Origin: Moniliella sp. 'wahieum'
Lineage: Eukaryota
Length of the DNA stretch: 64,000 nucleotides
Direction: 5' to 3'
Assembly (NCBI GenBank): GCA_003971905.1
Contig: RSEE01000063.1
Location: forward strand, 310,001-374,000
Shown here: positions 23,980 to 62,945 of the stretch, piece by piece
Position numbering within the stretch: position 1 is the stretch's first letter
Layout of the letters: every line of letters begins with the position of its first letter
Made by a program: the position numbers and the translations under genes
The notes under the pieces: generated by a model
Seen by the model: only the letters and a program-made list of their open reading frames with translations
Databases searched by the model: none
What the model was told of the DNA's origin: nothing

Positions 23980-26900
23980 TTGCGAGAGAAGACCGCATTC
24001 GCACAAGTCGCGTTCCAGAGTGAAGGGAAATTGCCTCTCTTTACTCGCTCAACAAAACTAAAAGGCAATCGAGACGGTGTGCCAGCCTCGTGTGTATCGA
24101 GCAGTTTGTATCAGGAGACGATATACATTGGGTCCTTCGCGGGCGAGACCGCATTTTCCACCTCATACATGTCCTCGAACTCGTCCATCCGCTCCAAGAT
24201 GTCACAGTATCCCAATCCCTGGTCTCTCAGGGCGATTGTCCAGGCCCTCAAGGACGGGTTCATTGAAGAACCACACAAGGGACGATGGGATCTGATCGGC
24301 ACAAGGACTCAGCCGATGGTCATGCTCAATAAGCATCCACGCGATCTGGCCATTCACATGTACCTTGGCGAATCTGTTCACCTGGTCAGCATTTCGCGCC
24401 TATCTTTCCCGTCTTGTGGCAACACGACGCTGATAGCGACTCGTGGCACGGGATCGGAATCGACCTGGTCCAAGACGAGACGTCCAACCTGCGTGAAGTA
24501 CACCGGCAACAGGACACGCGCCTTCATTCTTACTCAGTTGGACATAACCAAGTTGCGCCTCTAACGACTATACCATTAGTAAGTTTTCTTGCTCTTCACG
24601 CAGCGGCAATTCTTGTCGGGTTGACTGATGACTTCCACATCCTGGTACGACACAGGAACAAGGGACGGTGAGGAAATTGGGAAGAGCGTCAATCCCCTTC
24701 GAGCCAAGGCCTGTGGCCGAGCTCTGGTCCGTCTCCAGCTAGTGGGCTGGGCTGATGGTTTTGCAGACAATGTGTCCAATCGGCCAAGCTCTCTGAACAG
24801 CATGCTGCTGGGCAACATGCACGTTTCACGGTCGCAGTCTAGATGGGCAAGGAACCTTTTCCTCTTTGCATCGGAAACGGCCAAGTCTCCTCCCGTTGTG
24901 TGAGCAGTTGGTAAAACAGCTAGAACCCTAAGTGAGTATCGCAATCTAAGCCAAGTTGCCTTTGAAGTCGCCGTGATTCCTGGGCAAAAGCAGCATGCTA
25001 ACGTCTTTTTCGAACTTGCAGGCAGTATCACGAAGACCTCATCCCTGTCTGGGATTCGACCACCGAGGGATGGATCCTTGTACAGCCCGTGCTGCGGATG
25101 ATAAAGGGCGACAACGTGGCCGCGAACGAGATGGCTTCCATTATGGGCATGACTGCCCACGTGTGCTGCCGTTTTTGCGATGGCGGACGGCAACGGGGAA
25201 CGAATACGTTGGCGGAGAACGTGGCTGACTGTCTTGTGCGTATACGACACCACTGGTGTTACTGCTGTGCATCAAAATGGGACTGAATATAACCGGCGGA
25301 TACATCAAGACGGAAAAGGCGATCTACGTTCAAGTGTCGAAACTAGGCGCGAAGTCGATCACCAATAACTCGACATGGTCGTCAAGAACGACGGCCGTGT
25401 CGACGATCGGGCGAGCCAGACCGGGGTTAACGACAAAAGTATATGAAAGACGTATCCTTTATCCTGTTCAAGTCCCGCAAGACTCTGGAGGACTCAGCCG
25501 GGGCGACGAATGGCAAGAAGCGGAAGAGGCTGCTTTCCAATTTGGACTCCGGCGTTCGTGAGCTGCTGGATGAGTTCAAGAACAACGGCTAAGTGTTCAA
25601 CCCCTTTTGACTGTCCACGAATGGCAGGGGTGCTCGAGTTTCTCGGTCGGCAAGAGCCTGGCGATCGACGTCATGCACACAGTTCTCCTTGGGCGAGTCA
25701 AGGCCTCGGTCGAGCTGCTGACGGACTCGAACTTCGATAAGGGGCCCTCGCTAGCGCTGTGGCTGGATTCGTTCAACTCGTGGGGCATGGAATCGGTGGG
25801 TCGACGGCTCAATGGCACTAAAGTGGTTCACAGCATGCGCTCAGTCATCACGGGGGTTGACTGCAAGATATTATGCCAGACTCTCCCTCTGGTGCTGCCC
25901 AAGTTGGTGGCCACTCTGCGGTTGGACTCCGCCAAGCCCGGCGTCACGGAAATGGCGAGACAGAGACTTCTGAGCAAGATTGAGAGGCTGGAGAATGTCC
26001 GCAAGTGCATTGTGGCCGCCGCACGCATTAAGTGGCTTTGCTACATCGATAGCTTCGCATTTCAAGACCGAGCTACATATGGCGTACATCTGAAACTGCT
26101 AGCTCTCCTAGGCCCGTGATCATCTTCGCTAGTCCAAGTTCACAACTTACATTCTGCCCCGTACAGATGTGCCCACAGGAACTGCTTGACAAGGCGGTGA
26201 TTCACATTTTCATGGCCATCGCTGCCATCGACCCGGCCATGCTCGTTCGTCGCCCCAAGTTCCACCTTCTGAGTCACCTCTCCCAGCAGGCGCTGTTGTG
26301 GGGTCCTCTCAAGAACGCTGACACACAGCGTGAGGAGGAGTTTGTCCGCGTCATGCGCAATGCGGTAATATTTACGAACCGCAAAGATATATGCTGCGAC
26401 TTGAACTACAAGGTAGCAGCCCAGGAGAACCTGCAAAACCTGCTATGTGGAGGGCGGGCAATCGACATGCCGCGTGCAAAACTCGTGTCCCGCGATACAA
26501 CCCCTGACGATGAAGGGGAGGATGTGACACAGGGTCTGCCCGGTGGGAACACCAAGAAATTGTCCGCAGAGGTCTGGATCGGCAGGGGCCGAGCAGCTTT
26601 GCAATTGAATGGTACACCGCCTCAAGCTGGCACGACGATTCAGCTCTTGGGCCAAGGGCTCGGCAGTGTGTGGCAAGTCCCTCCCGCACCCGGTACCGGC
26701 CGCAACAGCCCTTCCAGCGCTGGATCGTGTCCGGCTTCGATCCAGACTGTGGCTAAGGCCAAAGTCATATCGGTGCACGACAAGGTTGGGCTTCCTGAAC
26801 CAATGACAGCAGAGCGGCGTTCTGCCACTGGGCCGGTCGAAGATATTGTCGACATGCCGTTGGTCCGCGTACAGCATGGCCAGCTTTGTGCTAGGGGGGA

Positions 26901-27527
26901 CTGGGTGCTTGTTGCCCAACAGGATATTGGTGAGTCCTCCCACCCCGCCATGCCCAGAATCCTGATACGCCGCCCTTCTCCATTGGCGGATAGAACATTG
27001 CCGCCCAACGGCCTAATATGGTTGCTGTGCACCGGCGGGCCAATCCGACTCGCGAGGGGGGGTCGGGAGCAGCGAGGACTGGTTCCAACCTTGTGCTCCC
27101 TGTGCTTTGGGTCAATGTCGCTTTGGCTCGCATCATGCCTATCGACTCGGCATATGACATGCGAGGCCTTGAGCTACCGCGCGCGTCCGCCCGACAGATA
27201 CATTCCGGCTTTGCAGATCCACACATCTTTGGTTCGCTTAACGTCCAGCACAATTGCGTGAAGGCAAGTGCCGGGTTGTCCCCAACAGCATTACGGATAC
27301 AACCACTGGCTTGACGTTCGATGGGGTCCAGCACAACAACTTGTCTGGGATGTCGGCGGAACAGCGCTATACGTGCTCAACCACTTTGTCAACTCTTTCT
27401 CTCCCCACACCGATATATTCTGCGACTTGCGGACTTGGCTTTTGCCCAGGACTGGGCGGTCGAGGGCGAGAATGTCCCTTCTGCCGACGATGTTTTGGAG
27501 GCAGTACAATCCGTAATGAATGTTTAG
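23980..27527 (+). pseudogene. CMC-type DDE transposase, disrupted (boundaries approximate, introns likely)
   Basis: 'NPLRAKACGR..LVGWADG' (D1), 'IPVWDSTTEGWILVQPVLRMIKGDN..MASIMG..CCRFC' (D2 + CxxC), 'IDVMHTVLLG', 'PKFHLLSH...WGP...TQREEEF' (HxxxH + E), 'LNVQHNC'. TGA at 24901 and TAA near 25590 where copy 2 has CGA and TAC. Confidence 0.8.
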
Positions 27528-28419
27528 ATATTTCCCGAATGGCTACTAATGATGGTAGTCACCACTGTTGATGTATACTCTACACCATCAGTCTATCACA
27601 GTTGCTAGCGACTTGGCTGAAAACGAACACAGCACATGGGCTGCCCAAAGATTGCCAAATTGCTGCGGGAGGCTTAGGCTCCAATGGTGCAACGGCCAAT
27701 TCCTACTATTGGCTGGAGAAACCTCAGGTTCAATTCGTGGGTGGGCCATCTTTTTAAGATGTCTCGAGGCTGACCGCCGTTCACAATATTGTGATTAGAA
27801 TAGCGGGCAAGGTTGTGACGAGCTTTATAGGCAGCAATCTAGGGACAACTTCGCTGGGCGGCCTTGCCGCAGTGTGGTCCAAGAGGTTGGGGCTAGCTGT
27901 GTTGGCGAGGCGGCTGTGACAAGGTTGTGCCCCTCAAATCTAAAGACAAGCTTGTGGTGTGGCCGGCAAGGTTCTGGGCTAGAAATTTCGATTAGCTATG
28001 TACCCAAGCCCCGATGTACTCCCTTGCCTAACCCTCCCAATGTACTGTCTCCACCCGGCTTTCATATCTGTACTTCGGGCAGGCTGATAGTGTCGTGTGG
28101 CATAGCCCCAACTCAGAATTTGTCTTGACACTCTTCCTCGTGATATCTCCATCTCATCCTATGCGGGAGGACACAACCCCCGCCCCCCCAAACTTTAATT
28201 TGCGTTCACATTTTCCCTTCAGCGTGAATGCCATTCAAGGTTTTCAGTTATACATATACAATATGGCCTCTACTGTCGGAACAAGCTGAATGCTACAAGA
28301 ACGCAATTGCAAATACCACGGACGTACCCAATAGCCCTTCTTCTATGAAAAGGGACTCTCGGGATGTGGTTCATTCCAAGAGAGGAGCCCGCCAAGGGCA
28401 GAACATAAAAGTAAGAATC

Positions 28420-28930
28420 GGATTACGCAGTGTGGAAGGGATGTGATATGTCAGATCTACTAACGCACTGGTCTGTTACCTCTTCCAGGTTACTATGGCG
28501 ACGCGAGGACACTATATGCCGCCAGCATGGCGAACAAGATGGTGTTTGAGCGCTGGAAAGAATCAACTGCCAACAACGAGTCCCATTGGATATGTGGGTG
28601 AAGTTCACCGCTCTCAAATGTCTCTGCCACGCTATCATTCTTATCCTCACTCTTTTATGCGCGAAGGCGCTCTCTCTGCTCCATATAGTACCGTCAACTG
28701 TGTATATAAGGCCCTATCCTTCTCATAGCCTCTTATACCTCTTCTCAGAACCATATATGTTGTCTGTGATCATCCGGCTCCCAGTCGGTAGGCCAGGCTC
28801 GCCTCGGTTCCATCGGCTTCCACGCTGCGGGTATCGTCCCAATGCAGCACTTTCCCTCTTCCCTGCATTCTCCCCTGTGTGCCTCACTAGCCTTGTGCCT
28901 AGTCTGACCTCCTATATAGATGCATCTGCA
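28420..28930 (-). mobile_element. Degenerate LINE-like RT remnant related to 38600-38760 and 40815-40880
   Basis: Shared DNA CCAGGCTCGC.TCGGTTCCAT.GGCTTCCAC..GCGGGTATCGTCCCA with ~38630. Translates as 'GTIPAAWK' and 'SDISHPFHT'. Confidence 0.5.
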
Positions 28931-30402
28931 CACTAACTCAAATTTGGCTCCAATCCCCTCATCCTTCTGTCCATACGATTCCCTAGGCCGACATCATATC
29001 CTATTCCCCCACCTCATTTGGCAACACGCGCTATATCCAGCTTGGAAGCAATGGCGAGCACCAGAGTGCGTGATCTGCGGCCAGTGGACTCCCCTGATTT
29101 CCTGATTGGTGCCAACAAAAACAGCACAGGTCGGATGAGCAGCAGGTAGACAGTTTGTGCAGCATTTCTTTGTCTTTACTGCGGCCTTTTAATAAGCTCC
29201 ATAAATATGGTGATACAACTACAGCATATAATGCATCCTGCGCGGTAGAAGATGTGTATACTTTTGGTTTTTTGTCTCTGATGGTTTTTGAGAGAATGTG
29301 GTCTCTATACTATGCTATAATAGCTTTTGCAGTTGGTCTCTATGTTACTGACAGTACTACTACTGTTACGCCGACTACCCTGTATCATGTGTCACAGGTG
29401 AAGACGGGCTGGTAAGGCCAGCGGAACCTATGTGTGCACTTCGCCTTCCGAATCCCGTCCCCAAGTTGGTTATGGGGTCAGAATCGATCTGATCCGACCT
29501 CAGCTGTGAGGCCTGTCCGCTCCCCAACAATAGAGCACGCTCCCAGATTATTCAACTCAACCCTATCTTGGCTGGCAAGCCCGCCAGCAAAATTACCATA
29601 GTCTACGTATCCTCTCGACAATAGTCGCCTCTTCGCGGTGGTCACCCAATTGTCAGTATTTTCCTTTGCGACGATAATCGTACCGTTCCGTTTACTATAT
29701 ACCTCTATAGGATTCCCATGCCGCAACCGCACTCCCTGTTTTCTCCTGTCCTCCTCTATTGCGTTGTTTTCTTTTTAGTCCTTGTCTGTTAACAAATGTT
29801 CGCCTGTTTCCACCCCACGGTCCATTGGCGTCTCCTTCTACTCTCCTCGCCGATTGATCAACCCAGTACAGACAATTCTTTCTCTTTTAGTTGCTTCTCC
29901 GCTTCCCATTCTCGTCCTCCAGCTCCCGTCTTCAGCACTCCCGTCCCTCAGGCAACGCACAGTTCGCGTGTGCCTTCAGGTGCCACTCGAAGCCCAGCTC
30001 AGTTCACCGCGAGCGATCCCGTTTCCAGTCACGCCTCCTCCAGTCCCAGTCCTGAGCCTTGATACAGCTCCAGCAGTGTTTGTCTCCACTTCCCATCCCC
30101 GTCCCTGAGCTCGAAGGCTTCAGACACGCTACTGCCGCCCAAGCCGGTGCTACGCAGCCTTGTTAACTTGCAGCCGCCTCAGCAATACGCCGAGAGGCTC
30201 TCCTTTTTGTCCCTCCCTCTCGGAACCACCAATCAGCCCAAACGCGTAACTACCGGAGTCAACCATAGGACCTCCAAGATATTGTACCCCTTAACCTCCG
30301 TGACACACAACACAGTGTGGAAACCCGATTCAAATAGTGCAGCGTCTCCGCGAAGACATCATCACCAATTGAGTTGACTCCACCACTATCTCTATTCTGT
30401 AA

Positions 30403-30460
30403 CCATATCATTGACCGAGCTTAAGGCTGGGACAAAGAAACGCTGAGCCTAAACCGACCA
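30403..30460 (+). repeat. Dispersed repeat family R, copy b
   Basis: CCATATCATTGACCGAGCTTAAGGCTGGGACA..AACGCT..CTAAACCGACC. Confidence 0.8.
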
Positions 30461-30553
30461 ATTCATCGATCATCCGGCGTCTGTTGCTTGTTAGCGCCAA
30501 CCCCGCTTAAGGAGCCAGCAGGGTAATCGCCAGGAGATTATATCTTGCTCGGA

Positions 30554-30759
30554 TGTCTACCACGTTCATCCGTGTCCACACGCGCTTCCTAGGGTACGGG
30601 ACCGGATGGCGACCACCGGAGGGGTCCTGGTATCGTGGCGATCCCCCTGGTTCTTTAATCTTGGTGGCGCTTCCAAGTAACCCCCGCAAGATGAACGGTT
30701 CGGTTTATCAAACGTAGCGTTCCCCCTGTCTCAACGCCAAGCTCTGTCAATGAAATGGA
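30554..30759 (-). repeat. Dispersed repeat family R, copy c (~200 bp)
   Basis: Colinear with 38771-38972, including CGCCATCCGGTCCCGTACCCTAGGAAGCGCGTGTGG. Confidence 0.88.
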
Positions 30760-31066
30760 TGCAAAGAGACTTTACGTCATGCTTACCTATTTGTTTGCGC
30801 CAGGTGGAGTTCCCATCCCACCTCCGCGCGCTCAGCCATGCGTGTGGGTGATGAAATTCGGCCTCTCCAGCGTGGAACGGTGACCAAGGTGGCGACGGTG
30901 GAACGATGGAACGGATGGTTGCCGTGGCGACGGTGGCCCAGCACCCAAACCGGGCCGTAGGCCCGCTGGTCCCCTAGTACCAGATGATCGATGAGCGCTC
31001 AGGCTGAGCACCATACAAAGCAACAACTTTTTTTGGGAAGTGCGGAATGAATAATGAGGGAAGGCT

Positions 31067-31150
31067 AGTAACTAGTAACTAGTGACTAGTGACTAGTGAC
31101 TAGTGACTAGTGACTAGTGACTAGTGACTAGTGACTAGTGACTAGTGACT
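31067..31150. repeat. Heptamer array (AGTAACT)2(AGTGACT)10
   Basis: Directly visible. Longest example of the xy-TNA-y'x' arrays. Confidence 0.95.
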
Positions 31151-33802
31151 GCCTCTACATGTTCGCCCACATCAACGTTCAACAGTCTTAGGAAATCCTA
31201 GCCTCGGCAACCCGCGTTCTTATTCGCTCACAGTCTGTATGTCATTCAGGGTGTGTGCGCCCAGCATGCCCTCCATATGATGAAGAGTATGAGGCCGTCG
31301 GGTTAGGCTGAGGCGCCGAGGGGCCTGACATAGGCTTCAGCTTCAGCTTCAACACCTGAAGCCTGAAATTTGAAAGGGGACACGCTCGATTAATGTGGGT
31401 CATGTGGGTCAATTTCCGACACGCTCAAAAGTTGGTGTCGCATGCCACACATGTGATCTACGGCGACCCCGTATGTGTGCCTGAGGAAGGGGTTGTCGGG
31501 AACTAATGCATGTGCGACCTCATGTAACCGTAACCGGTAACCAACCGACTGTAAATATGCACAAACATATCATTAAATCAAATTAATCATTGTTCTCCCA
31601 CCGGAGCATCCCCATTTTCAGATCTGAGATCTGAGATCTGACAGCTTTACAAGCATGAGATGCATGATTATAGTATGAAGAGCCACAAAAGGTCATCGAG
31701 TGCGAGCTCTCTCGGTATTATCAGGACTTCACACATCATGTGCATCATGCATCACCGGTAACCAGTGGTTACTATACCTTGCTTGTACGTGAATCCGTCA
31801 ATCGCGACTGCCCTCTCCGACGTTCCGCACGTCAAGTTTCAAGCTTCAAGCTCTTCAAGTCTGCAGCACCGTTAATAAGCGACTGTGCTGGTTTTTGGTT
31901 ACCGGCGGTTAATACCCGTTTGACAAGCTAGTACTACTCTACTTGACGGTAACGCGGTAACCGGTAACGCCCGGTAACCGGTAACGCGTAACGTGTACTA
32001 CTTGCATGCTATACCAACAGTAGATGGCATCTATATCCTCGATCATGTCGATCATGCATCATGCATCATGCATTATGCCAATGATGCATGATATGTTGTT
32101 GTTGACAATATCGCATTGTACCTGTCACACATGTCACTCACTCATTTTATCAACGTGTCGGAGATGTCGTGCCTCCTTCTGTCCCTCGAAATGTAAGAAG
32201 CGCCCGTTCAAACGTTCATGACGTTCATGCATCATGATGCATGACATGTGACATGATGACAGGAACCGGGGGATACTCTCAATACTTTGGTACTCGATAC
32301 TCTCGTAGTACTCAGTGGGTTCTGCGGAATACTTGATACTCAGTCCGAGTGCTGAACGTACCCAACGGAACGTTCAACGCGCTCAACGACGTCAACGTTC
32401 AACATGCTCAACAGCGTTTATCATTTAATGTTCAAAACGTTGAAGTTGAACGTTGAAGCTTGAAGCTTGAAGCTTGAAGTTCAACCGCAGAGTCCGGTCG
32501 AAAGCTATACTATTACTCGTGTCAATCTATCTGTAGTCAGTATACTTACGAGTCACTCTAGTCACTAGCTAGTCAGTGCTGAGACTGTCGTCACGCGTCA
32601 GTACTCAGTGCAAGCTCCAAGTTCTTCAACAAGCTTCAAGTTCTCCAAGCTTCAAGCTTCAAGCTTCAAGCTCTTCAAGCTTCAGTATTCGGTACCAATA
32701 TCAGTGCGGAGGCGCTGAGTACTACTAAGTACTCAGTGAGTACTAAGATATAGTATGAACTTTGAACGTGAACTTGCATCCTTTTAAGTACTCTGTTCTG
32801 TTGCATTAGGGTTATGGTGCTTGGACCATATAGTACAGGATCTATCTAGAACTTATATTAAACCCTCAAAGACGTGCACAGTGTGCAAGTCACATCTGGG
32901 AGCATATGAGCGTGAGCGCTGCATGTGACACACATGTGGGCAATGTGAGCCATGTGAGCAATGTGAGCGCTGAGCGCGCGCTGCGGCTGAGCCCGCTGCA
33001 CAGTCACTTGTCACTAGTCCGTAATCACCACAGTGATCACTAGTCACTACAGCCACAACCATTTTGGTTGTGATTGAGTGGGTATTATGATTGTGGGTAT
33101 TCTATTGATGGCCTTGCGCGTTCCAATGGACCGCTGCGTGCATCTGCATCAACGTCAGCTAGGCGCCGAAGCGCGAAGCTTTGAAGTGACTAGTGACTAG
33201 TGACTACATTGGAACACAAGTGCTTCAAGCTTGAAGCCGTGCTGGGCGCTTCTGCGGCCTTTGCTTCCTAGCTGAGGCCCTGAAGCCTGAGAAGCAGGCG
33301 CTCAAGCGCTCAGGCCTGAGCCTCAGGGGGAAACAAGGTTGCGCTTGGTCACGCTCCTCTTAGAGGGACTGTGACATGTGAACGTTGAACACCGAACATC
33401 GGCAGTGCACCTGAGGCCTTGAGGCTTGACGCTGATAGTGATTGACACTTCGGTGACTTTCACAATCAGTGTATGTGTAGCCACCCGGGTGGAGTCCTTT
33501 CGAGCCCCAGTGTGTGTGGCAACTAGATTCCGCCTCAAGCTTCAAGAGTGGAACGACGGGCAACTCGAATTCTTCTTGCCTGCCACCACCTCGCCAACGC
33601 TAGTGCCCTTGCTTTTCAAGTTCCCTCGGTTCTCGACGCCGCCAAGCTGCGTCGCCACTGAACGCATCGCACCCGTTCGTGCTTTACACACGCCAGCACA
33701 ATCGTCGCACACCCGCACGGCTCTTTTTCTTCGCATAATCCGACACTATCGATACCACACTTCTTCTGCGCCTCCTTTCACCCGGGATTACATTCCTTGC
33801 TC

Positions 33803-37899: not shown

Positions 37900-38760
37900 C
37901 TTCTGGGTTCGACCCAGCTCCGCTCTTCTCCTCTACTATGATATAATACTACATAACTGCACTTAAGGGCACCACTCCATTGGGAACGTGGATCACTATA
38001 TGTGCCTATGTCATAGGCGTGTTTAAGGGCATATATTGTTGACGGAGGTGCCCCCACAAAGATACATACAAATCCTGATGATCGATGTTGGTAGACCACA
38101 GACGGGGGGCTCCCCTAGGCTCCCGGAACAAAGATGGCCACAGTACACAGTTATAGTAGCGCATATATCACACAGCATAATATACGCATCATGAAAAACC
38201 CCTCTGCATCACGCTCTCATAGTTCCTCAACGTTACATCAAAAACGTTTTCAACACTCTCTTCTACTGATTTGAGCCGAACGAAAAACGTGATTCTAAGG
38301 AAGAGAGAAACACGTTATGCTGGAGAAAATTACGGACACAGGCTTATATATAGCCCAGGGTATAATATAGCAGAGGGAACGTCCGGGAAGATATATAAGA
38401 AGGACGACGGCTTTGCTGGTGATCTGGACAGCGACGCAACGTCTATATTTACACTTTTTTTGGCGACCAATGCAGCAATAACAAGAGAAGTATGCAAGTA
38501 TGCCCCCAGTGTGCCTCCTGGATGCAACTCCTATGGTAGGGTGAGAGATAAAGGAAATGTAGGGTATGCATGCAGAACCTTGAGGACGATGCTGTTGACG
38601 ATGATCCTCCGGCTCTTAGTCGGTAATAGACCAGGCTCGCTCGGTTCCATTGGCTTCCACACGCGCGGGTATCGTCCCAGCGAGTGTTGAGTCTGCCCCC
38701 CTGATGTGCCCTGCATAATCGCTTCCCGTATATCTCACTTGCCCTGTGCCTAGTCCGGCC
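37900..38760 (-). mobile_element. Degenerate non-LTR (LINE-like) reverse transcriptase remnant
   Basis: Ordered decayed motifs on the minus strand: 'GRYPRVWK..KSRRIIVNSIVLKVL' (~38580-38680), D-x-SKA (~38415), G-A-(stop)-GSPPS (~38110), YSD (~37997). Confidence 0.55.
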
Positions 38761-38770
38761 TCCTTTTGAA

Positions 38771-38972
38771 TTCATATCATGACAGAGCTTAAGGCTGGGA
38801 CAGGGGGAACGCTACGTCTAAACCGAACCGTTCATCTTGCGGGGGTTTTTGAAAGCGCCACTAAGGTCAAGGAACCAGGGGGATCTCGCTAGGATATCAG
38901 GACCCTCCGGCTCTCGCCATCCGGTCCCGTACCCTAGGAAGCGCGTGTGGGCACGGACGAACGTGGTTGACA
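38771..38972 (+). repeat. Dispersed repeat family R, copy d (~200 bp)
   Basis: GACAGAGCTTAAGGCTGGGACAGGGGGAACGCTACGTCTAAACCGAACCGTTCATCTTGCGGGGGTT... Confidence 0.88.
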
Positions 38973-41900
38973 GGCCTCCTTTTATAATTAGATGCCTCTG
39001 CGCCCATACCCAACTCTGGCTCCAATCCATCACCTTCTCCTCATCATTCTGCGCGCTGAGACTCAGCGCGCTCAACCGGCTTCCTAGGCCAACAGGTGTC
39101 ACATGTCACCGGTCACCAGCGGCGACACAACCGAACGAGAAAACCCAATATTTTTTGCCTTTTTGTGCGACAGCGGGGTGCACGCGCGAGTAGTACTTAG
39201 TAGCCGTGCATATATAGATGCGGCCGCGGTTGCCCGTCTAGGTACGTAGGGGCGCTGAATAAACCATATCCCCTAAGAAGGCCCAAGTGGGGGGTGAACG
39301 TGTGAACGCAGCGTTACATCCGTACGAAGACAACTAATACTAATATTGATTGCAGCGCGCACAAGACGCACTCCACATCAGTTGTTTTACTGCGCTTACT
39401 GCACCGAGGGAACAGCATCGTAAGCGTAACCCTTGAAGCTTGAAGCTTGCGGTGTGGAGCAAAGCTTCTTACAACATACGCCGCTATAGCGGCCGTCTAA
39501 GGATGCAACAGTCCGGATATACGGTCCAATACAAAGAGAAGTGACTAGTGACGCGTGACGACTAGAGGCCAGTGTGACACAAGTGACTGCAGTGACTAGT
39601 ACTAGTAGTACTTCACTAGTACCTAGTATAGCTAGTGGCTAGTGATGCATGATGCATGATGTATGATGTATGATGTATGATGATGATGCATGATGTACGA
39701 TGCATGTTGCTAGATGGAATAGCTTCAAGCTTCAAGGATATCGATCGATTGATCGATCGATCATCGATCATCCGGCACAATCGCTAATGTTAGCTTTGAC
39801 GAGTGTGTGTATTATAAAAGTACTTTGCCGAGGTCTTCTGGCCCCTCAGGCCTCAAATTCCTCAAACCGGATCCCTCCCACATATTTTCTCCCTTGTTTC
39901 TCTGTTATATATTGTTTCTGTTATATATAGATCTGGACATAAATCATATGGGGTGCGTTTCGGGAGAAGAGAGATATGATGCAATGCATGATGGGTTTTT
40001 CATCCGTCAACATAACTATGTTGTATGGTGTCGTTAAAATACTGCGAGAAGAGTACTGACTGCCACAGAGTAAGCCCTCTCTTCAGAGGCGGTGCGTGAG
40101 GCGTGAGGCGCGAGGCGTGCGGTGCGGTCAGCACAGGTGCCTGCTCTGCATTCTTTTTCTCCAACAACACCAACACATTAGTTAAAGAACAGATTCAGCC
40201 ATATCTATGGTACATCATTGCATCACCATCTTTGTACGCCTACCAAAATGGCATTGTCAGTGTTACGAAAGGGTGGAGATTATCGATCGATTTAAAGAGA
40301 GAAAAGTCCGTTAGGGACAGAGCATATATATGGGTGAGTCGCATACATATAACAGCGCCAGAGATGATGTGTGAACAGCTACATGCATATGGTGGCGTTG
40401 ACAACCTCGCCGAGACCCGACGCTAGAATCCGACGAGAGTTTGGAAGAGTGTCGGGTGTCGGGATCAGACTCGATCATAGTTGTCTGGCCCCCTTGATTT
40501 GTTCTCCACCCTGTTTCCCCCCCTTTGGATTGTGCCCTCTTTTCCTCGTGTGACTTAGCTCGCATTTCTCTTCTCCGAGACATATATATACCCCGCTCTC
40601 TTTCCACAACACTCGATGAATATGATCCCCATCCTTTCCCCCATCCCCTCCTGTTAGGTTTGATCCCACTCACAGCCTTCCGGCTTTCAGCCCAATCGCC
40701 ACCCCCATGTCCGCTGGACACATCTCTCTACCCTTCCCCTCCCCTATACACCACATGTCCGCCGCCGCACACGTGCTATTGCGTCCCACGCGGCCAGCTG
40801 AAGGAGGAGGATAAATGAGGATGTGGTTCTGAAGAGAGGTACAGGAGACTGTGAGAAGGGGAGGGGCCGTATATATAGGCGAGGTTACCAGGAGCAGAGG
40901 GAGCGTCCGGGCGGATAAGAGGTTTCATGCCTATCACGCAGGACGGCGTGTGATGATTGGGCATCCCCAACAAGAGACAGCTGGCAGAGGAGAGGGATCT
41001 GAGCCAAAGAGATGTGCTTGATGCGAGGAGCCTCTGATCCTCAGTCAAGCTATAGCTTTTTGAACAGAAGCGAGGCTGTCAACCTCTCGTCTACCCGCGC
41101 CTTTTTAGTTACCCCCGAACCAATCATCCCCAGCGCTGCATGGTGGAACTGTCAGTCCGGAAGCGCCTCCAACCAGAGCCGACAGAATTGGGCCCCCGTC
41201 AACAACTCCACAACATGTTAGCTATTGCCGCCGCCGCTGTCACCGAGCCGGCCACACCCCTACCATCGCCGCCAACGCGCCGTAGATTCTTTTCATTTTC
41301 TTTTACAGTGCGGCCGACTTTGGAGAAAGTTGCAGGGAGAACTGGGGCAAGGGAGAACGTTTAATTGTGACGACGCCACGGTACCTATATGACAGGATTT
41401 TCGGACAAAGATTAGGCATCACGGTGGCCATGCAGCGTATGAGATTTTGGATGAAGACAGTTTGAGGGCTTTTTGTCCTCTTCATTCTGTACACGCGTGT
41501 TGAACACGAGAGGGACCCACAATTCGAGAGGAGTGGCGCGTGGTCCTTAGTTCTCGCTTGGGAGATGATCTTTGTTCACGGTTGTGGCTTCGGGAAAAGG
41601 CCGCGGTCTGTGAGGCATGACATATATGCCTAAAAGATTAATGGTATTACGTATCTATTAATGGTGGTACTGTATACTCTTCAGACCAAAACATACTTAT
41701 TAACCATCGCCTGATTCGCTTCATTTAGTTGGAGAACGAACGGAATGATGAGAGTTGTGATGATCGAGATGGACGCTTTCTTCTGTACGGAGTTTCGACG
41801 GATTCTAGGGGAGACGACAATTCCCGGGGTAAGAAGGACGATAACTTTGAAGACAAGGTCATGAGAGCCAGTGTGGAGCCCGTGCCTATTCGGATGATAG

Positions 41901-42726
41901 TGTAGCGACGCAAGTATGCCAGAACGCAAGCGAGACACAACAGTCTCTACGATGCAGACAGCGAATACAGCGGAGAGAGGGGGGGAGTATTGAGTATAAG
42001 CGGGAGCGGGATACAGGTGGAGGTAAGGCAAATACAGGCGTTGCTACGAGAAGAAAACAAAAGCTTCTGAGTAGGTAAGCTAACTGAAGAAGGCCTAGCC
42101 AGCCACGTGGCAACAATAGGATGCGGCTGCCTCCTTTGTACCAGTATATTGCGCCCCACACGCGTGTGTTGAACGTTGAGAGGCCATAATCAACAAAGCC
42201 AATGCCTGTCTTATCATCACTTTCGTATAGCCCCCCCCACTACGGATGCGAGCACGATGCCACCCGCCAAAATCTTGGAGCTCAGCCTGTGAGCGACAAG
42301 CAGGTTCAGGTTGTGGTCACCAGCTTCGTACTCCAATGTGGTCTGATGCTACCGCTTGGGCACAACTCAGTGGCTATTAGGACCCGCACTCACAATCCCA
42401 TCCAAAAGTTTGATTTTTGCCACGTTTTACACGAAACTGTTCGGGAACCGATCTTCAGGCCCCATGTTCCGACGTACTGCGCTCCATCCCGGACACCGAC
42501 ATTCTCAACGAGTGGGTTCGGGAGGATGAGGACAAATGCGTTTGGGGAGGAAGGACATCATATACGTACGGATTTTACCGAGTAGTGATGCTAGTGATGC
42601 ATGATGGGACCAGGAGTGCCCGGGAGATCAGGAATGAAGCTTGAAGCTTGAAGCTTGAAGGCGGATCACACACCTTGAGGGAGAGTCCTGAATTCGGAGG
42701 TGCAATATAATGATACCAGCCATTAT

Positions 42727-42841
42727 CCCCCTGGTTCCTTGACCCTGGTGGTGCCCCCAAGTAACCCCCGCAAGATGAACGGTTAGGATTAGACGTAGCG
42801 TTCCCCCTGTGCCAGCCTTAAGCTCTGCCAATGACATGGAA
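42727..42841 (-). repeat. Dispersed repeat family R, copy e
   Basis: CCCCCGCAAGATGAACGGTT..AGACGTAGCGTTCCCCCTGT..CTTAAGCTCTG. Confidence 0.88.
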
Positions 42842-44236
42842 TCAGTGACGCGGAGGGGTCATACAAAATGTCACACGGGAGCCACACATGCTACTAGCTT
42901 CCAAGTATTTTCGCGAGACGGTAACGTTTTTTGGTAGCTAAAGGTTTTAGGCCGTTAGGCGTTATGACCCTGAGACCCGAGGGCCTGAGAGTAGCTGGTA
43001 ACCGGTACAACTGGTAACCGAAAACGGCAACTGCCTAATAAGGCTAGCAACTGGTATATATATAACCTGTGACATGTGATAACTCGATAACCCTAGTGGC
43101 TTGTGGGCATATGCGACTTGTAACGTTGACATAGTGGTGTGTGATTCTGTAGTACGGGGTGGCGACAGCGAATGTGGTGGGCGCAGCGATCTTCCAGCAG
43201 CGCAGCAGCTTGGGACGAGGCGGGGGGGCGGGGCTTGTGGGGCTAACATGCAACAACAGGCCGATGATTAAGGAGGCGCTGAGGGGTGACCTCACCGGTC
43301 AGCTGAGGCCTGAGAATCTGAGAGCGCTGAGGCGCGGAGGCTCAAATCCAGCATGCACATGGCGTGCTGTGAGCCTCAGAGCCTCAATATGCTGGACGAG
43401 CCGCAGACCTCTCGCTTCGTGTGGAACACGCTATGGCGATGATCGCTGAGCGATGAGCGATCGATGAGCGTTGTCTGTGAGCCATGCGACATGCGACATG
43501 CGAGCGGAATCATCGTCTTATCACCACTCTCGTCTGGGATTGTAGATTCCGGGGGGATCGCGGCGCGTCGGAGAGAAAGGACGATGAAGCTTGAAGCTTG
43601 GAGAGGGTGTGCTGTCGCCAATGCATCCTACGCCCACCGCCCCCAGCCTGGGAGAGGCACATAGGCCAGCACCTAGCACCTAGGCCGTAGACTTCTCCTA
43701 CTTGCGCAAACACACCTAGCGCTTTGCAGAGCGAGCTCCCTACAAACTGCTCCGCCGAGGCCAATAAGGCCGGTGGTTGGGGGCTTGAGATTTAGTTGAT
43801 GTTGAATATTGAATCCTCACCGGCCGGTCACCTGAGGCCCAGAGGCCTCAGCCTGATGATCGATGAGGTCGATTGAGATCACCGAGATCATCCTGGTAGG
43901 GACTGGTTCGTTGCTATTTGCGATAGTTACTAGTTACTAGTTACGACTGAGCTCTATAGCTACGAGCACACTCGCGAACTCAGTTGAACGTGTGTACTCC
44001 GTTACAACGCAACACGGCTGAGCAGTGCGTGGTCGACCTGCTAGAGCTCTGTTGGTCGGCGTGTTCAACGTTCAGTGGCATGTTCCTCGGCAACAGATCA
44101 CGCTGCCTCCGTGATGAGGTATGGTCCAGCAGTCAGTTCCGACTTCCGCATCCTCGCCATCTCTTGCCTTACCCGCGTCAAGCTTGGCTGTGGACTGCCA
44201 CCACCACCACCACTCCCTTCGCCCACCCTCGCCAGC

Positions 44237-45718: not shown

Positions 45719-47155
45719 TCTACGTATTCTTCCATTGGCAAGCGCTTCAAGCTCCTACAGGCTCTTACACTCTTTTTTTGTCGTGTCTTCCCTCTTCCGT
45801 CGTCACATATCACCCTCTCAGATCTCAGATCTCAGATCTCACCATCTCTAGCTGCTGCACACCCTAATCACAGCGCAATCAAGACCTGTCTAGTGCAAAC
45901 AATCACTACTGCACGTTGCACTCACACCCGTCCTTTAGTGCATATAATCCCTACCCTCTCGTGCCTTTCCATCGACCGTCCTTGGAACTCTCACATGTCG
46001 TCCCTCACTATACTCCGTCGCTCCTTCCTAATCACTCCGATTCGCGTCCTAGGGCCTCAACGTACAAAACAATCACAACGTATTAACCCCCCGTTTCCCG
46101 TTTCCCGTTTCCCGTTTCCCGTTTCCCCTTTCATGCCTGTGCCACATGCGTTTCCTCCACTCCACACACCGTCCTGCAAGTTCTTTTTTTTCCCGTCGGT
46201 CCCCATGGCCGCCCTTGTGTTCGGCCACACACTGCCTCTCATGCCTTTTGATCATCTGTATTCCATCTTTGGCTGGGAACTCTCCAGCATGTTCTTGTCT
46301 GAGATCTGTTCCTTTTGTTCTGTGCTTCCTGTCGTCACTAAGAATCTTCCCATCTTGTCGATCGGTCGTGAATATTGAATTGTAGGTTGAACGTCGAGCA
46401 AACACCGCCATTTACCTCGCCCCCCCCCCACACACATCAGACCTGTCTCAGGGTTTTGGCACCTTCTTTTGATGCTTGAATTTACAACTCTCCAGTATAG
46501 GTAACCATCTGGCGACGCGATTCTAGTCGACTTGGACTGCCAAACTGGCGATGCTCACACAGGGGAACATGTAGAGATCCGGAGCTGGAACCCGCGAAGA
46601 TGGGGCATACCAGGCGTGCATGATGCCTCCATGAGGCCTGAGGGCCTGAGGTCAATTTGTAGATACAAAGGGCAGGCAAATTCCGTCCCATATTGCGTCG
46701 CCATGCATCGTGGAGTCTGTCGGTCGTAGCGGGGGGCCAAGCACCAAAGGAATGGAAACCCGGCCACTAGGGTTGGAGCCAAAAGCAGAAATAATTGCGC
46801 CGACAGTGGCGGTGTGCCGGGTGCATATCCTCATGGGCACCAGGGCAGTCTCGAGGTCCCGCCGGGGCCCCCAGTTGGGCGATGGCCTCTCCTTGCGGCA
46901 ACGCCTCTTCATCTGAGCATCAAGCTTCAGCTTCGAGTACGACAGCCGGGCGGCCTCAAGGTAAGCGGATGCTCCGGACACGGATGTGGGCATACGATGG
47001 GTGGATTGCCAACCCAAGACGCCGGCACCGAGTCCCTTCCATCCTGCCTGGACTCTCCTGGCTCCACCCGCCAAGGCCGGAGCAGCGGGACAAAGTGGAT
47101 TCTGAACGCGGCGAAGCTGACTCTTCCCTGTGTGTTGGCAGGAACCGATTCGCAA

Positions 47156-54084: not shown

Positions 54085-54651
54085 GACCCCCCCCTTCTCT
54101 TTCGTCGTCTCTGTATCTATACGTTGGACATGTTGTTGAAGGTTGAGTAAACGTATATCACGTTTATCTGATCTCTGAGCTTTCTTCTTTCGTCTCGGTT
54201 GAACTTATTGTCGCACAGTTCCATCCTTGGTTCAGAACGTTCAGACATGGTGGATGTAGATCTGTTACCATGTTACCATCCAAAATTGCAGAGGGTAGCA
54301 GAGTTGTGTACTTACAACAAGCCTCAGCGAAGGAATGCCATATCTATCATCAATAGCTGCACTGAAACAGGATAGGAGATGGCGGGGACGTATCAATGTG
54401 CTTTATCCTCCCCATACGGATTGAAGACTTCCTGGGGAGAGATAATACATGTGTGCACCGTTTCCAAACATGATGCATGGATCATGATCACCACAACCGA
54501 TCAATTTCTCCAGCAAGCGCCGACAGTGTCCCCAGTAACTAATAATTAATAACGGTTCGTCCCCTGTCATGCATGTCACCTGGCACTCCAACCAGACAAC
54601 CGCATCATTGCAATGTCCTTCAAGCTTCACCCTTAGCTCTACTTTCCATAT

Positions 54652-54735
54652 GTAACCCGCAAGATGAACAGTTCGGTTTAGACGTAGCGTTCCCCCTGTC
54701 CCTGCCTTAAGCTCTGTCACATGTCAATGATATGC
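54652..54735 (-). repeat. Dispersed repeat family R, copy f (carries a 7-bp insertion)
   Basis: CCCGCAAGATGAAC..GTTTAGACGTAGCGTTCCCCCTGTCCCTGCCTTAAGCTCTGTCA[CATGTCA]ATGATATG. Confidence 0.88.
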
Positions 54736-54956
54736 ATTCGAAAGTAGAGATTACCCGCAACGTTTGAATTAGGAGCAACGTTAGACGTTAGAATTACGCG
54801 CAACGTTGCAATTGCGCGCAAACGTTTGTAACCGTGGAATCATGATGCGTGACGCGCATGACGTCTGCAAAACGCCCTTGTGACATGTAACGTGCAGGCT
54901 GGTTGCGGTTGCCGCGTGGTGTGCTGGTGGAGCGTACGTTGAGCCCTTCGGGCAAC

Positions 54957-57544: not shown

Positions 57545-60500
57545 CATAGCTAATCGAAATTTCTAGTCACAATGTTGCCGCCGATCTCGCCTCAAGGTGA
57601 GAAATTGATACCGTGAGTCTATGATTAGAAGTGCCACAACCCTGTACAAGAAAAGCTTGCGCAAGATGGTCGCAAGGTCGAGACAATCTATACCCGACAG
57701 CTTGGCCCCAGGTTACCCCCACCTATCCCCCACCTATCCCCGACAGTCCGCAGCCTTGCTGGCAGGCTGGTGGCAAGGCTAGCCACAGATATTTTCACTA
57801 GGCTGGCGGCTAGGGTGGTGGCTAGGGTGGTGGCTAGGGTGGTGGCTAGGGTGATGGCTAGGGTGCCACGATGCTATCAGATCAGGCAGTGGATTATCTT
57901 TAAAAGCATGCATTGCCATGGTGTTTAGACACAGAGACGTAGAGGAGCGCCAAGGCAACGGCAGGTTGTTCGAGGAGCCTCGGGACGGCGGCAACCACAG
58001 AAGCTTTGCCTTCGTCGTTTAATCCCGGACCAAAAACATCGTGGGGACGCCGAGATGATAGGGATAGAAGGGCAAAGAACAAGAGCCATACAACTTGCGG
58101 CGTGGGGGCGAAGCGTCATCGCGTTCGAGAGGGAGAATGAGTCCCGCAACCATACGGCGAACGATGATCTGTGTGCAAGCCAGCACATGTTCCGTGGTCG
58201 TTTCCTCAACACTTGAGCGCCTTCTCCAATCATCCTGCTTAAAGGCGTTGATTGTCAGTATAGGGCGGATAAGGACAAAGCGCAGGTACTGACCTGTTGG
58301 CCGGGGAAACCGTCGCCGTCGACCGTCCGCTCGAAGCGCCCCCGTCGTTGATCTTCAACTCGCCTGCGGGAGGTATGACCGGCATCTTGGCGCAAAGGAT
58401 ATCAGGGATCGCCAGGCGTTGCCGACTCGGTTCCGGTGGCTGCGCATAGGTCAGTCAGTACGACAGGCATCCGCCCGAGGGGCGTGGACATACCGAGGCC
58501 AGGCGCTAGCACAGCAAGCGCGTCGGCGGGGGGGCATATAATGGCAGCGCAACGAGCCGGACACATGTCACCAGCTCCGGTAGCACAGTGTGTGGCCAGC
58601 GAGAGAGGGGCGGTGGCGGTGGTGGTGGTAGTCGAGAGGCAAGAGCATCGGCGCAGCTGCGTGCGGTTATAGGCGCAACCCCGGTGGTCCACCGGCGGTC
58701 CACCCGCATGGCGCCAGTGTTGCCCCCGCACGCCACCGCCAGCTCAAGGCGCCCACCTGCAGCCTGGGCGTTTAGTATATATATAGAGTTTTTTAAGCTA
58801 CGCACTTGAGATAGTCGTGACAACAGCTATATACAGCACTATACTCCAGTCCAACCGTCTCGTTGCGAGAGAAGACCACATTCGCACAAGTCGCGGGCAA
58901 GAGCGAAGGGAAATTGCCTCTTTACTCGCTCAACAAAACTAAAAGGCAATCGAGAAGGTGTGCCCGCTCGTGTGCATCGAGCAGATTGTATCAGGAGACG
59001 ATGTACATTGGGTCCTTCGGGCGAGACCGCATTTTCCACCTCGTACATGTCCTCGAACTCGTCCATGCGCTCCAAGATGTCACAGTATCCCAATCCCTGG
59101 TCGCTCAGGGCGATGGTCCAAGCCCTCAAGGACGGGTTCATTGAACAACCACACAAGGGACGATGGGATCTGATCGGCACAAGGACTCAGCCGATGGTCA
59201 TGGTCAATAAGCATCCACGCGATCTGGCTATTCACATGTACCTTGGCGAATGTGTTCCCCTGGTCGGCATTTTCGCGCCTATCTTCCCGTCTTGTGGCAA
59301 CGCGACGCTGATAGCGACTCCTGGTACGGGATCGGAATCGACCTGGTCCAAGACGAGACGTCCAACCTGCCGAAGTTCACCGGCAAGAGAGGACACGCGC
59401 CTTCATTCTTACTCAGGTGGACATAACCAAGTTGCGCCTCTATGACGACTATACCATTAGTAAGTTTTTTCGCTCTTCACGCAGCGGCAATTCTTGTCGG
59501 GTTGACTGATGACTTCCACATCCTGGTACGGACACAGGAACAAGGGACGGTGAGGAAATTGGGAAGGGCGTCAATCCCCTTCGAGCCAAGGCCTGTGGTC
59601 GAGCTCTGGTCGTCTCCAGCTGGTGGGCTGGGCTGATGGTTTTGCAGGCAATGTGTCCAATCGGCCAAGCTCTCTGAACGGATATGCTGCTGAACAACAT
59701 GCACGTTTTACGGTTGTCGCAGTCTAGATGGGCAAAGAACCTTTTCCTCTTTGCATCGGAAACGGCCAAGTCTCTCTTCCGTTGTGCGAGCAGTTGGAAA
59801 ACAGCTAGAGTGAGTATCGCAGTCTAGGCCAAGTTGCCTTTGAAGTCACCGTGATTCCTGGGCAAAAGCAGCATGCTAACGTCTTTTTCGAACTTGCAGG
59901 CAGTATCACGAAGAGCTCATCCCTGTCTGGGATTCGACCACCGAGGGATGGATCCTTTTGTACAGCCCGTGCTGCAGATGATAAAGGGCGACAACGTGGC
60001 CGCGAACGAGATGGCTTCCATTATGGGCATGACTGCCCACGTGTGCTGCCGTTTTTGCGATTGCGGATGGCAACGGGGAACGAATATGTTGCCGGAGAAC
60101 GTGGCTGACTGTCTGATGCGTATACGACACCACTGGTGTTACTGCTGTGCATGAAATGGGACTGACTATTACCGGCGGACACATCAAGTCGGAAGGCGAT
60201 CTACATTCAAGTGTCGAAACTAGCGCGAAGTCGATCACCAACTCGACATGGTCGTCAAGAACGACGGCCTTGTCGACGACGGGCGAGCCAGACCGGGGTT
60301 AAGTATATGAAAGACGTATCCTTTATCCTGTTCAAGTCCCGCAAGACTCTGGAGGACTCAGCAGGGGCGACGAATGGCAAGAAGCGCAAGAGGCTGCTTT
60401 CCAATTTGTACTCCGGCGTTCGTGAGCTGCTGGATGGGTTCAAGAATAACGGCTACGTGTTCAACCCCCTTTTGACTGTCCACGAATGGCAGGGGTGCTC

Positions 60501-62873
60501 GAGTTTCTCGGTCGGCAACAAGAGCCTGGCGATCGACGTCATGCACACAGTTCTCCTTGGGCCAGTCAAGGCCTCGATCGAGCTGCTGACGGACTCGAAC
60601 TTCGACAAGGGGCCCTCGCTAGCGCTGTGGCTGGATTCGCTCTCAACTCGTGGGGTATGAATCGGTGGGTCGACGGCTCAATGGCACTAAAGTGGTTCAC
60701 AGCATGCGCTCAGTCACGGGGGTCGACTGCAAGATATTGTGCCAGACTCTCCCTCTGGTGCTGCCCAACTTGGCGGCCACGCTACGGTTGGACTCCGCCA
60801 AGCCTGGCGTCACGGAAACGGCGCGACAGAGACTTCTGAGCAAATTGAGAGGCTGGAGAATGTCCGCAAGAGCATTGTGGCCGCCGCACGCATTAAGTGG
60901 TTTGCTACATCGATGGCTTCGCACTTCAAGACCGGGCTACATATGGCGTACGTCTGAAACTGTTAGCTCTCATAGGCCCGTGATCATCTTCTCTAGTCCA
61001 AGTTCACAGCTTACATTTTGCCCCGTACATATGTGCCCACAGGAACTGCTTGACAAGGCGGTGATTCACATTTTCATGGCCATCGCTGCCATCGACCCGG
61101 CCATGCTCGCGTTCGTCGCCCCAAGTTCCACCTTCAGAGTCACCTCTCCCAGCAGGCGCTGTTGTGGGGTCCTCTCAAGAACGCTGACACACAGCGTGAG
61201 GAGGAGTTTGTCCGCGTCATGCGCAAGGCGGTCATATTTACGAACCGCAAAAAGATATTTGCCATGACTTGAACTACAAGATAGCAGCCCAGGAGAACCT
61301 GCAAAACCTGCTATGTGGAGGGCGGGGAATCGACATGCCGCTTGCAAAACTCGTGCCCCGCGATACAACCCCTGACGATGAAAAGGGGAGGAGGTGACAC
61401 AGGGTTTGCCCGGTGGGAACACCAAGAAATTGTCCGCAGACGTCTGGATCGAGGGGCCCAGCAGCTTTTTGCAATTGAATGTTACACCCGCCTCAAGCTG
61501 GCACGACGATTCAGCTCTTGGGCCAAGGGCTTGGCAGTGTGTGGCAAGTCCCTCCCGCACCCGGTACGGGCCGCAACAGCCCTTCCAGCGCTGCATCGTG
61601 TCCGGCTTCGATCCAGACTGTGGCTAAGGCCAAAGTCATATCGGTGCACGACAAGATGGGGCTTCCTGAACCAATGACAGCAGAGGGGCGTTCTGCCACT
61701 GGGCCGGTCGAAGATATTGTCGACATGCCGTTGGTCCGCGTACAGCATGGCCAGCTTTGTGCTAGGGGGGACTGGGTGCTTGTTGCCCAACAGGATATTG
61801 GTGAAGTCCTCCCACCCCGCCATGCCCAGAATCCTGATACGCCGCCCTTCTCCATTGGCCGGATAGAACACATTGCCGCCCAACGGCCTAATATGTGGTT
61901 GCTGTGCACCGGCGGGCCAATCCGACTCTCGCGAGGGGGGGTCGGGAGCAGCGAGGACTGGTTCCAACCTTGTGCTCCCTGTGCTTTGGGTCAAGGTCGC
62001 TTTGGCTCGCATCATGCCTATCGACTCGGCATATGACATGCGAGGCCTGGAGCTACCGCGCGCGTCCGCCCGACGCATGACTTACATTCCGGCTTCGCAG
62101 ATCCACACCATCTTTGGCCCGCTTAACGTCCAGCACAATTGCGTGAAGGCCAAAAAGTGCCGGGTTGTCCCCAACAGCATTACGGATACAACCACTGGCT
62201 TGACGTCCGATGGGCTCCAGCACAACTTGTCTGCGACGTCGGCGGTACAGCGCTACTTGCTCAACCACTTTGTCAACTCTGTCTCTCTCCCCACACCGAT
62301 ATTCTGCGACTTGGGGACTTGGCTTTTGCCCAGGACTGGGCGGTCGAGGGTGAGAATGTCCCTTCTGCCGACGATGTATTGGAGGCAGTACAATCCGTAA
62401 TGAACCTTTAGATCCTTCCCGAATGGCCATAATGATGGTAGTCACCACTGTTGATGTATACTCTACACCATCAGTCTATCAGTTTTTAGCGACTTGGCTG
62501 AAAGCGGACACAGCACGTGTGGCTGCCAAAGATTGCCAAATTGTGCGAGAGTCTTAGGCTCCAATGGTGCAACGGCCAATTCCTACTATTGGCTGGAGAA
62601 ACCTCAGGTTCAATTCGTGGGTGGGCCATCTTTTTTAAGATGGCTCGAGGCTGGCCGCCGTTCACAATATTGTGATTAGAATAGCGGGCAAGGTTGTGAC
62701 GAACTTTATAGGCAGCAATCTAGGGACAACCTCGCTGGGCGGCCTTGCCGCAGTGTGGTCCAAGAGGTTGGGGCTAGCTGTGTTGGCGAGGCTGTGACAA
62801 GGTTGTGCCCCTCTAAAGACAAGCTTGTGGTGTGGCCGGCAAGGTTCTGGGCTAGAAATTTCGATTAGCTATG
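57545..62873 (+). mobile_element. DNA transposon, CMC/EnSpm-like, copy 2 (5329 bp)
   Basis: Same 22-bp TIR (57545-57566 / 62852-62873), TA flanks (57543-44, 62874-75). Flanking DNA is unrelated to copy 1. Confidence 0.93.
58863..62400 (+). pseudogene. CMC-type DDE transposase, copy 2 (many frameshifts, some possibly sequencing errors)
   Basis: Same motifs as copy 1: 'GDNVAANEMASIMGMTAHVCCRFC', 'IDVMHTVLLG', 'LNVQHNC'. Confidence 0.75.
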
Positions 62874-62945
62874 TATGCATCCAAGCTGGCGTGTGCATCC
62901 ATGCTCACCGGTGCACAAAAAATCTCATGTAGATAGCACGTAAGG

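Follow-up and report, generated by a model that had tools for sequence, protein, structure and literature searches.

A seven-base-pair gain inside a SINE-like repeat copy of Moniliella sp. 'wahieum' resembles the excision scar of a hairpin-forming transposon

The footprints of Ac and Tam3 have a characteristic pattern, in which the target duplication (TSD) is kept and the bases at the junction are inverted and templated by the flank. The V(D)J coding joint, which is formed at signal sequences in vertebrate immune genes and involves no target duplication, acquires short palindromic additions, the P nucleotides, by the off-tip opening of hairpins, and this opening prefers a position 2 nt off the tip. 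Outside these systems, the Galileo/1360 elements of Drosophila (P superfamily) are described as making 7-bp TSDs; their target consensus is palindromic, and P-type cleavage leaves long staggered ends, not flank hairpins. Hairpins in the flanking DNA are described for hAT, Transib, MULE and RAG1, together with a proposed Artemis-like opening of the hairpins by the host (Artemis having a role in V(D)J joining) and with end joining that leaves footprints (PMC5499845). Among hAT elements, excision footprints belong to Ac/Ds, Tam3 and the fungal Ascot-1. Within the basidiomycetes, 7-bp TSDs are reported for two groups: the hAT7 families of rust fungi, which are described in Pucciniales and cluster with Ac and Tam3 (Kojima 2025, PMC12730594), and Kyakuja (KDZ) of Laccaria (PMC12730594).

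Here, we compare with these systems a 7-bp gain found in a single 64-kb stretch of DNA (the window), from which all of our evidence comes. The window is fungal nuclear DNA: Pfam domains encoded within it include PX-associated domains, secretory lipase, CTNNBL, Rieske, cyclin, 14-3-3, ribosomal L6 and palmitoyl thioesterase, and the best named relatives, at only 34-41% identity, are the basidiomycetes Tilletiaria, Ceraceosorus and Serendipita, so that the host can be described no more closely than as basidiomycete-like.

Read directly, positions 54711-54735 are GCTC TGTCACA TGTCAAT GATATGC. They lie in a copy of a repeat family, R, of which self-BLAST and two alignments recovered six copies in the window, not three. 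The copy that concerns us here, c54 (54644-54745, plus strand), is 5'-truncated and has its insertion close to the 3' end, with about 17 bp left to that end; this insertion is internal to R, since similarity goes on for these roughly 17 bp beyond it. The closest relatives of c54 by self-BLAST are c38 (38768-38972, minus strand), a full-length copy of 205 bp that is 96.9% identical over 64 bp, and c42 (42725-42846, plus strand), which is 89.7% identical over 68 bp. The remaining copies, likewise identified by self-BLAST and alignment, are c30p (30554-30765, plus strand), which is near full length, c20 (20345-20411, plus strand), which is truncated and more diverged, and c30m (30403-30497, minus strand). 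Across all five, identity to c54 is 79-97%.

A comparison of these copies at the c54 site fixes the direction of change. The sequence GCTC TGTCAAT GA stands at 20387-20399 in c20 and at 30741-30753 in c30p, so that the readings given in the preliminary description for c54 and for the copies near 20390 and 30745 hold base for base. The short allele is TGTCAAT in c20, c30p and c30m, TGCCAAT in c42 and TGTC-AT in c38, and the pair TGTCACA-TGTCAAT (54715-54728) is found in c54 only, with the extra 7 bp present in 0/5 of the other aligned copies. Since c54 is the only long copy, and since both of its nearest relatives, c38 and c42, are short, the short allele is ancestral and c54 gained exactly 7 bp on its own lineage. 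This agrees with the size of the gain claimed in the preliminary description, and the ancestral long allele that it had named as the observation to fear does not appear among the six window copies.

The gained unit bears a precise relation to the one beside it. The ancestral heptamer, TGTCAAT (54722-54728, plus strand), has the form nnTNAnn with TCA at its centre and is the presumed 7-bp target, as the paralogues read; the new unit, TGTCACA (54715-54721, plus strand), is its palindromised form, TG-TCA-AT having become TG-TCA-CA, where CA is the reverse complement of TG. Both the palindromised unit and the nnTnAnn site had been proposed earlier and are exact, with the qualification that the register of the seven added bases is ambiguous, several equivalent placements being available within 54715-54726. 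We also noted that c38 is one A short at the very heptamer of the c54 gain (TGTC-ATGA; 38780-38787, minus strand), which could be a coincidence, slippage in the AA pair or a sign that the heptamer is a hot spot.

What family R is can be judged from the copies themselves. An 11-bp direct repeat, AAAAGGAGGCC, flanks c38 at 38973-38983 and 38757-38767. The window also contains a low-copy repeat (38593-38770 versus 28758-28935), the first copy of which carries c38 and the second of which is the corresponding empty site: near 28900-28935 the flanks of c38 are found with a single copy of the 11-mer and with R absent, which demonstrates directly that R has been inserted. The R copies range from about 65 to 212 bp and, as aligned, share a common 3' end, with all copies other than c38 cut at the 5' side. 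Taken together, the 11-bp direct repeat, the empty paralogous site and the common 3' end with 5' truncation indicate that R behaves as a SINE-like retroposon. No tRNA-, 5S- or 7SL-derived head was found in R by ARAGORN (0 genes) or by Rfam (0 matches at the gathering score). The preliminary description had the 7-bp gain postdate the insertion of R; as the simplest reading this is likely, and it falls short of proof in that c54 would look the same if its source copy had changed earlier and c54 were the sole sampled descendant.

The same family provides a second case in which the ancestral state is witnessed. In c30m, which has the short allele at the c54 site, the R alignment shows a 7-bp insertion elsewhere: a new unit, GATGATC (30474-30468), is followed by GATGAAT (30467-30461), the pair occupying 30461-30474 on the minus strand. 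All four R copies that cover this site have a single GATGAAC, c20 being deleted there. The new unit, GA-TGA-TC, is again a palindromised form, made by the same rule as in c54. Both of the copy-specific 7-bp insertions found among the R copies of the window (2/2; c54 and c30m) thus sit at nnTNAnn and carry an inverted dinucleotide; this is the outcome, for the R copies of the window, of the check that the preliminary description had proposed. R copies also have private indels that do not follow the rule, namely a gain of 3 in c30p, the loss of 1 in c38 and the deletion in c20.

To put this rule in general form, an ancestral xyTNAab becomes xyTNA + y'x' + xyTNAab, where y'x' is the reverse complement of xy. 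We scored junctions of the form [xyTNA][rc(xy)][xyTNA][other 2 nt] on both strands of the 64-kb window and found 64 of the c54 type, against a mean of 0.28 and a maximum of 1 in 40 first-order Markov simulations. The inverted dinucleotide is present at 64/86 xyTNA junctions (74%) versus 39/476 junctions of other 5-mers (8%, near the chance level of 1/16), so that the flank-templated, inverted origin earlier claimed for the two changed bases of c54 applies as a general rule. Most of the 64 events (54) have one palindromised unit, with two units in 5 and three in another 5, and isolated single events number 13 and 14 in the two orientations, where 0.17 and 0.03 are expected. Neither strand is favoured (30 plus and 34 minus events). 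G or C occupies the centre of the target in 53/64 events, and in the ancestral heptamer no clear complementarity links the outer two bases to the first two. The two filler bases vary with xy (CA, TC, AG, GG, CC, AC and others). This tracking of xy implies that the filler was copied from the flank and is not the remnant of an element end, a source that its variation with the flank rules out.

The events are unevenly distributed, falling in intergenic clusters at about 10-13 kb, 30-34 kb, 38-40 kb, 42-46 kb and 54 kb. Such patchiness may stem from a targeting of intergenic DNA that is open, from selection that keeps 7-bp indels out of genes, or from age. The motif of c54 itself, TGTGACA or TGTCACA beside a copy matching it at 5/7 positions, recurs at 10358, 32240, 33370, 39097 and 43068, and the junction listing places another scar of the c54 type, CTTCAAG CTTCAcc, at 54618-54631 (plus strand), about 100 bp upstream of the c54 finding. 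The surroundings of c54 (54150-54900) form a local hot patch with about nine heptamer-type events in 750 bp, including forms with 9 added bases at 54230, 54565 and 54863 and one with 8 at 54263. Seven loci (31980, 32240, 32452, 32596, 33377, 39104 and 39547) are 'triples', in which a non-palindromic heptamer has its xy-palindromised form on the left and its ab-palindromised form on the right, as in TGTGACA-TGTGAAC-GTTGAAC.

These scars grade into tandem arrays. Exact tandem duplications in the window number 50 at period 7 (3.85 expected under the Markov model), compared with 47 versus 12.1 at period 6 and 9 versus 0.55 at period 8. A perfect 7-bp palindromic rotation exists for 32/50 of the exact period-7 arrays, and in 32/32 of these the third base of the palindrome is T and the fifth is A, where chance would give 2.2% per array (binomial tail 2e-40); the centre is TGA in 16, TCA in 11, TAA in 4 and TTA in 1. 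The longest array (31065-31150, plus strand) consists of AGTAACT x2 followed by AGTGACT x10, all of them palindromic units of the form xyTNAy'x'. Thirteen array ends stop on a unit that matches the inner five bases only, such as tgTGATG at 10261, cgTCATG at 10697, agTGATG at 39643, aaTGAAG at 42635 and TCTCAcc at 45816. In the array listing, the first of these is followed by CATGATG x3 (10261-10286, plus strand), so that the transition lies at the end of the array, and the last closes an array of TCTCAGA x3 as its non-palindromic final unit (45816-45841, plus strand). As a separate observation, AGTGACT arrays of 10 units (31065-31150) and 3 units (33185-33206) flank the densest scar patch of the window, about 2 kb long; no TIRs were found at the inner edges of this pair that would support an insertion of the 2 kb into one array. 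A microsatellite born by slippage would start from a pre-existing repeat and follow no rule at its ends; in R the ancestral heptamer is single, and 54/64 events are single units that bear the inverted dinucleotide. Growth of the long arrays by slippage after a first event and growth by repeated visits could each have occurred and leave inseparable products.

The spacing of identical xyTNA 5-mers bears on the length of the duplicated target. Their distances peak at 7 (172 versus 5.3 expected), followed by 9 (50 versus 5.4) and 8 (37 versus 5.0), and a plain 5-bp spacing is not in excess (7 versus 5.45). By reading of the list, many of the products with 9 added bases have the form [xyTNAab][rc(xy)][xyTNAab], in which all seven bases occur twice, and some non-palindromic heptamers are present in exact, in-phase duplication (AGTTACC x2 at 515, GTTCAGT x2 at 19748). 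The missing 5-bp excess, the duplication of all seven bases in the +9 products and the exact non-palindromic duplications favour a 7-bp over a 5-bp TSD. The class with 8 added bases is only partly explained, by 1-nt additions.

We consider it probable that the extra seven bases of c54 are the excision scar of a hairpin-type cut-and-paste element, for which a hAT-like element offers the best fit. We see the product alone and infer every step of the route. A cut-and-paste DNA element would have entered TGTCAAT in the R copy and duplicated this heptamer as a 7-bp TSD. On its later excision, each flank would have been sealed as a hairpin, which host enzymes would have opened at a point 2 nt from its tip, leaving 4-nt palindromic overhangs. 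Retention of just one of these overhangs would have removed AT from the end of the left copy and added the inverted, flank-templated CA to the right copy, and joining would have produced TGTCA-CA-TGTCAAT, a net gain of 7. The +9 products would arise from untrimmed flanks if the opening lay 2 nt off the tip in one hairpin and exactly at the tip in the other. At a heptamer that is already palindromic, the overhangs would be identical and self-complementary, so that rejoining could yield a perfect +7, rebuild the target and allow arrays to grow; this would explain both the perfect arrays of palindromic units and the array ends that match the inner five bases only. The same process may have operated at nnT(G/C)Ann sites throughout the intergenic DNA of the window.

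Two features expected of a hairpin-type footprint are found here. Both TSD copies are kept, as seen in the period-7 excess, in the +9 products and in the gains of exactly 7 bp in c54 and c30m; and the junctions resemble P nucleotides, with rc(xy) at 64/86 of them and a filler that varies with the flank. Against the scar model, the seven triples require two hits on one heptamer. Of the hairpin-excision origin put forward in the preliminary description, the product, its size, the target site and the inverted bases all find support, and the agent is the part that does not follow from the window, which holds neither an element with a 7-bp TSD nor a transposase domain.

Among known groups, hAT-type transposases fit best, particularly the 7-bp-TSD hAT7 of rust fungi. 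Like the footprints of Ac/Ds, Tam3 and Ascot-1, the scars described here keep the TSD and have junction bases that are inverted and flank-templated. They differ in being 7 bp rather than 8, in having a T(G/C)A-centred target with no element in the window, and in occurring at dozens of sites in 64 kb, where they grade into arrays of up to 12 units. The 8-bp targets of hAT elements follow nTnnnnAn, from which the nnTNAnn seen here differs, and this counts against a hAT reading. The hAT7 families, as basidiomycete hAT elements, are consistent with the scars in TSD length and in class of chemistry; the window shows duplications of the 7-bp length typical of hAT7 and has neither a hAT transposase nor an enrichment of the published hAT7 terminal motif (19 matches versus 20.4 expected). 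Kyakuja shares the 7-bp TSD and a basidiomycete host, and its CA..TG termini cannot account for fillers that vary with the flank. Galileo/1360 shares the length of the TSD but is a group of animal elements. Finally, the P nucleotides of V(D)J coding joints resemble the fillers as short palindromic additions, but they belong to a reaction that duplicates no target.

A search of the window for the agent itself returned the following. Nothing convincing was found among TIR elements with a 7-bp TSD when exact 10-bp inverted seeds 60-12000 bp apart were collected in the window with any TSD length. When TIRs were sought beside exact nnTNAnn repeats 40-12000 bp apart, with >=9/12 matches, the high scorers were the arrays themselves only. 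No transposase Pfam domain was found in the 148 window ORFs of at least 110 aa (21 of at least 200 aa and 127 of 110-199 aa), all Pfam hits being to host genes. With no such element or transposase in the window, the agent is one that we infer.

The window does contain one element in two copies, at 22620-28002 and 57545-62875, which are 92.6% identical over about 5.4 kb and have 22-bp TIRs and TA duplications on both sides. It was considered as the agent and ruled out, its duplications being TA and not 7 bp, with no peak of 7-bp indels. Together the copies make up 17% of the window and contain 0/64 of the scar events. The 60 indels between them include one 7-bp case, which is not a TNA duplication, and this counts against the scar model. 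The largest ORF of the element (26053-27261, 402 aa) has no Pfam match and found no relatives in a protein search; the element could be Tc1/mariner-like or a TA-duplicating Harbinger- or EnSpm-like element. Its two copies contain an 11-mer array (CCCCCACCTAT; 22792-22839 versus 57716-57741) of unequal length, 4.4 units against 2.4, and both also have a 12-mer array (22897-22964 versus 57798-57865). Arrays of transcription-factor sites were likewise considered as an origin of the heptamers and ruled out, the outer bases being too varied and one event lying inside a retroposon.

Several other explanations can be set against the excision of a hairpin-type element with a 7-bp TSD. One is a Transib-like element, which would duplicate 5 bp and, with no need for trimming, add two hairpin-derived nucleotides to give xyTNA + y'x' + xyTNA. 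Transib has a TSD of 5 bp. The commonest product in the window, a 5-mer followed by a 2-nt inverted filler and the same 5-mer, is just what this would leave, and Transib is described as forming flank hairpins (PMC5499845). However, plain 5-bp duplications of xyTNA are not in excess, the outer ab is also duplicated in many of the +9 products on the list, the duplications at 515 and 19748 are exact and in phase over a whole non-palindromic heptamer, and a 5-bp target would leave TNA away from its centre, an odd arrangement for a symmetric enzyme; we therefore regard a 5-bp duplication as improbable. One could also dispense with the mobile element and suppose that a hairpin-forming nuclease, of the host or domesticated, cuts nnT(G/C)Ann with a 7-nt stagger and that repair leads to the same products. 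A window devoid of element and transposase, and events clustered in a few intergenic regions, would suit this idea, but the geometry of the products is that of insertion followed by excision, and no nuclease is known to us that combines a 7-nt stagger with the sealing of both flanks as hairpins in the absence of transposon ends. Such a nuclease seems to us unlikely, though not negligible. Little probability, too, attaches to a template switch during replication, in which the quasi-self-complementary TNA would lead to the copying of two bases from the opposite strand and then to re-copying of the 5-mer, with slippage expanding the palindromic units. It would account for the position of TNA right before the inverted dinucleotide, and palindromic arrays can presumably fold in a way that favours slippage. 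Yet nothing in this model fixes an inverted tract of exactly 2 nt in 64 cases, and it leaves unexplained both the +9 products, where ab and not TNA precedes the inverted bases, and the exact duplications of non-palindromic heptamers.

Two further accounts concern c54 itself. In the first, TGTCAAT was duplicated by plain slippage, and two neighbouring substitutions then turned AT into CA and made the unit palindromic by chance. This is possible for a single site considered in isolation; but the ancestral sequence has no repeat on which to slip, and an inverted pair expected by chance at 1/16 would have to be reconciled with 64 junctions where 0.28 are expected, which makes this account very improbable. 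The idea that the long allele is ancestral and that the other R copies lost 7 bp found no support: 5/5 of the other copies are short, including the nearest, c38 and c42, and identical deletions would have been needed repeatedly, so that we give it scarcely any weight. The excision of a hairpin-type element thus stays our preferred reading.

Taken alone, the event in c54 would work like a classical hAT-type footprint, and the mechanism itself is not new. Transposon footprints have usually been seen singly, in reversion experiments, whereas here they appear to have built up to a density of about one per kb (64 across the 64 kb, in a few intergenic clusters) and to pass gradually into arrays with as many as 12 units. 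Our literature search returned no report of scar accumulation seeding heptamer arrays, and none of footprints at such density, of a T(G/C)A-centred 7-bp target or of a grading into heptamer arrays. In c54 and c30m, paralogues witness the ancestral state and fix which way the change went and by exactly how many bases, which turns a statistical pattern into an observed mutation. As a more tentative extension, which we hold to be possible though doubtful, the process may act as a ratchet, in which each visit of the hairpin enzyme to nnT(G/C)Ann adds 7 bp and the first visit palindromises the site, so that heptamer arrays in intergenic, promoter-side DNA would serve as visit counters; the enzyme might even be domesticated and act without mobile DNA. 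If the excision reading is true, it would offer a concrete way, open to test, in which visits by a transposon give rise to short tandem repeats near genes; it would specify which target (nnT(G/C)Ann, 7 bp) and which repair signature (a 2-nt hairpin offset) belong to an element as yet unseen in this genome; and it would allow the activity of that element to be dated against dated repeat insertions.
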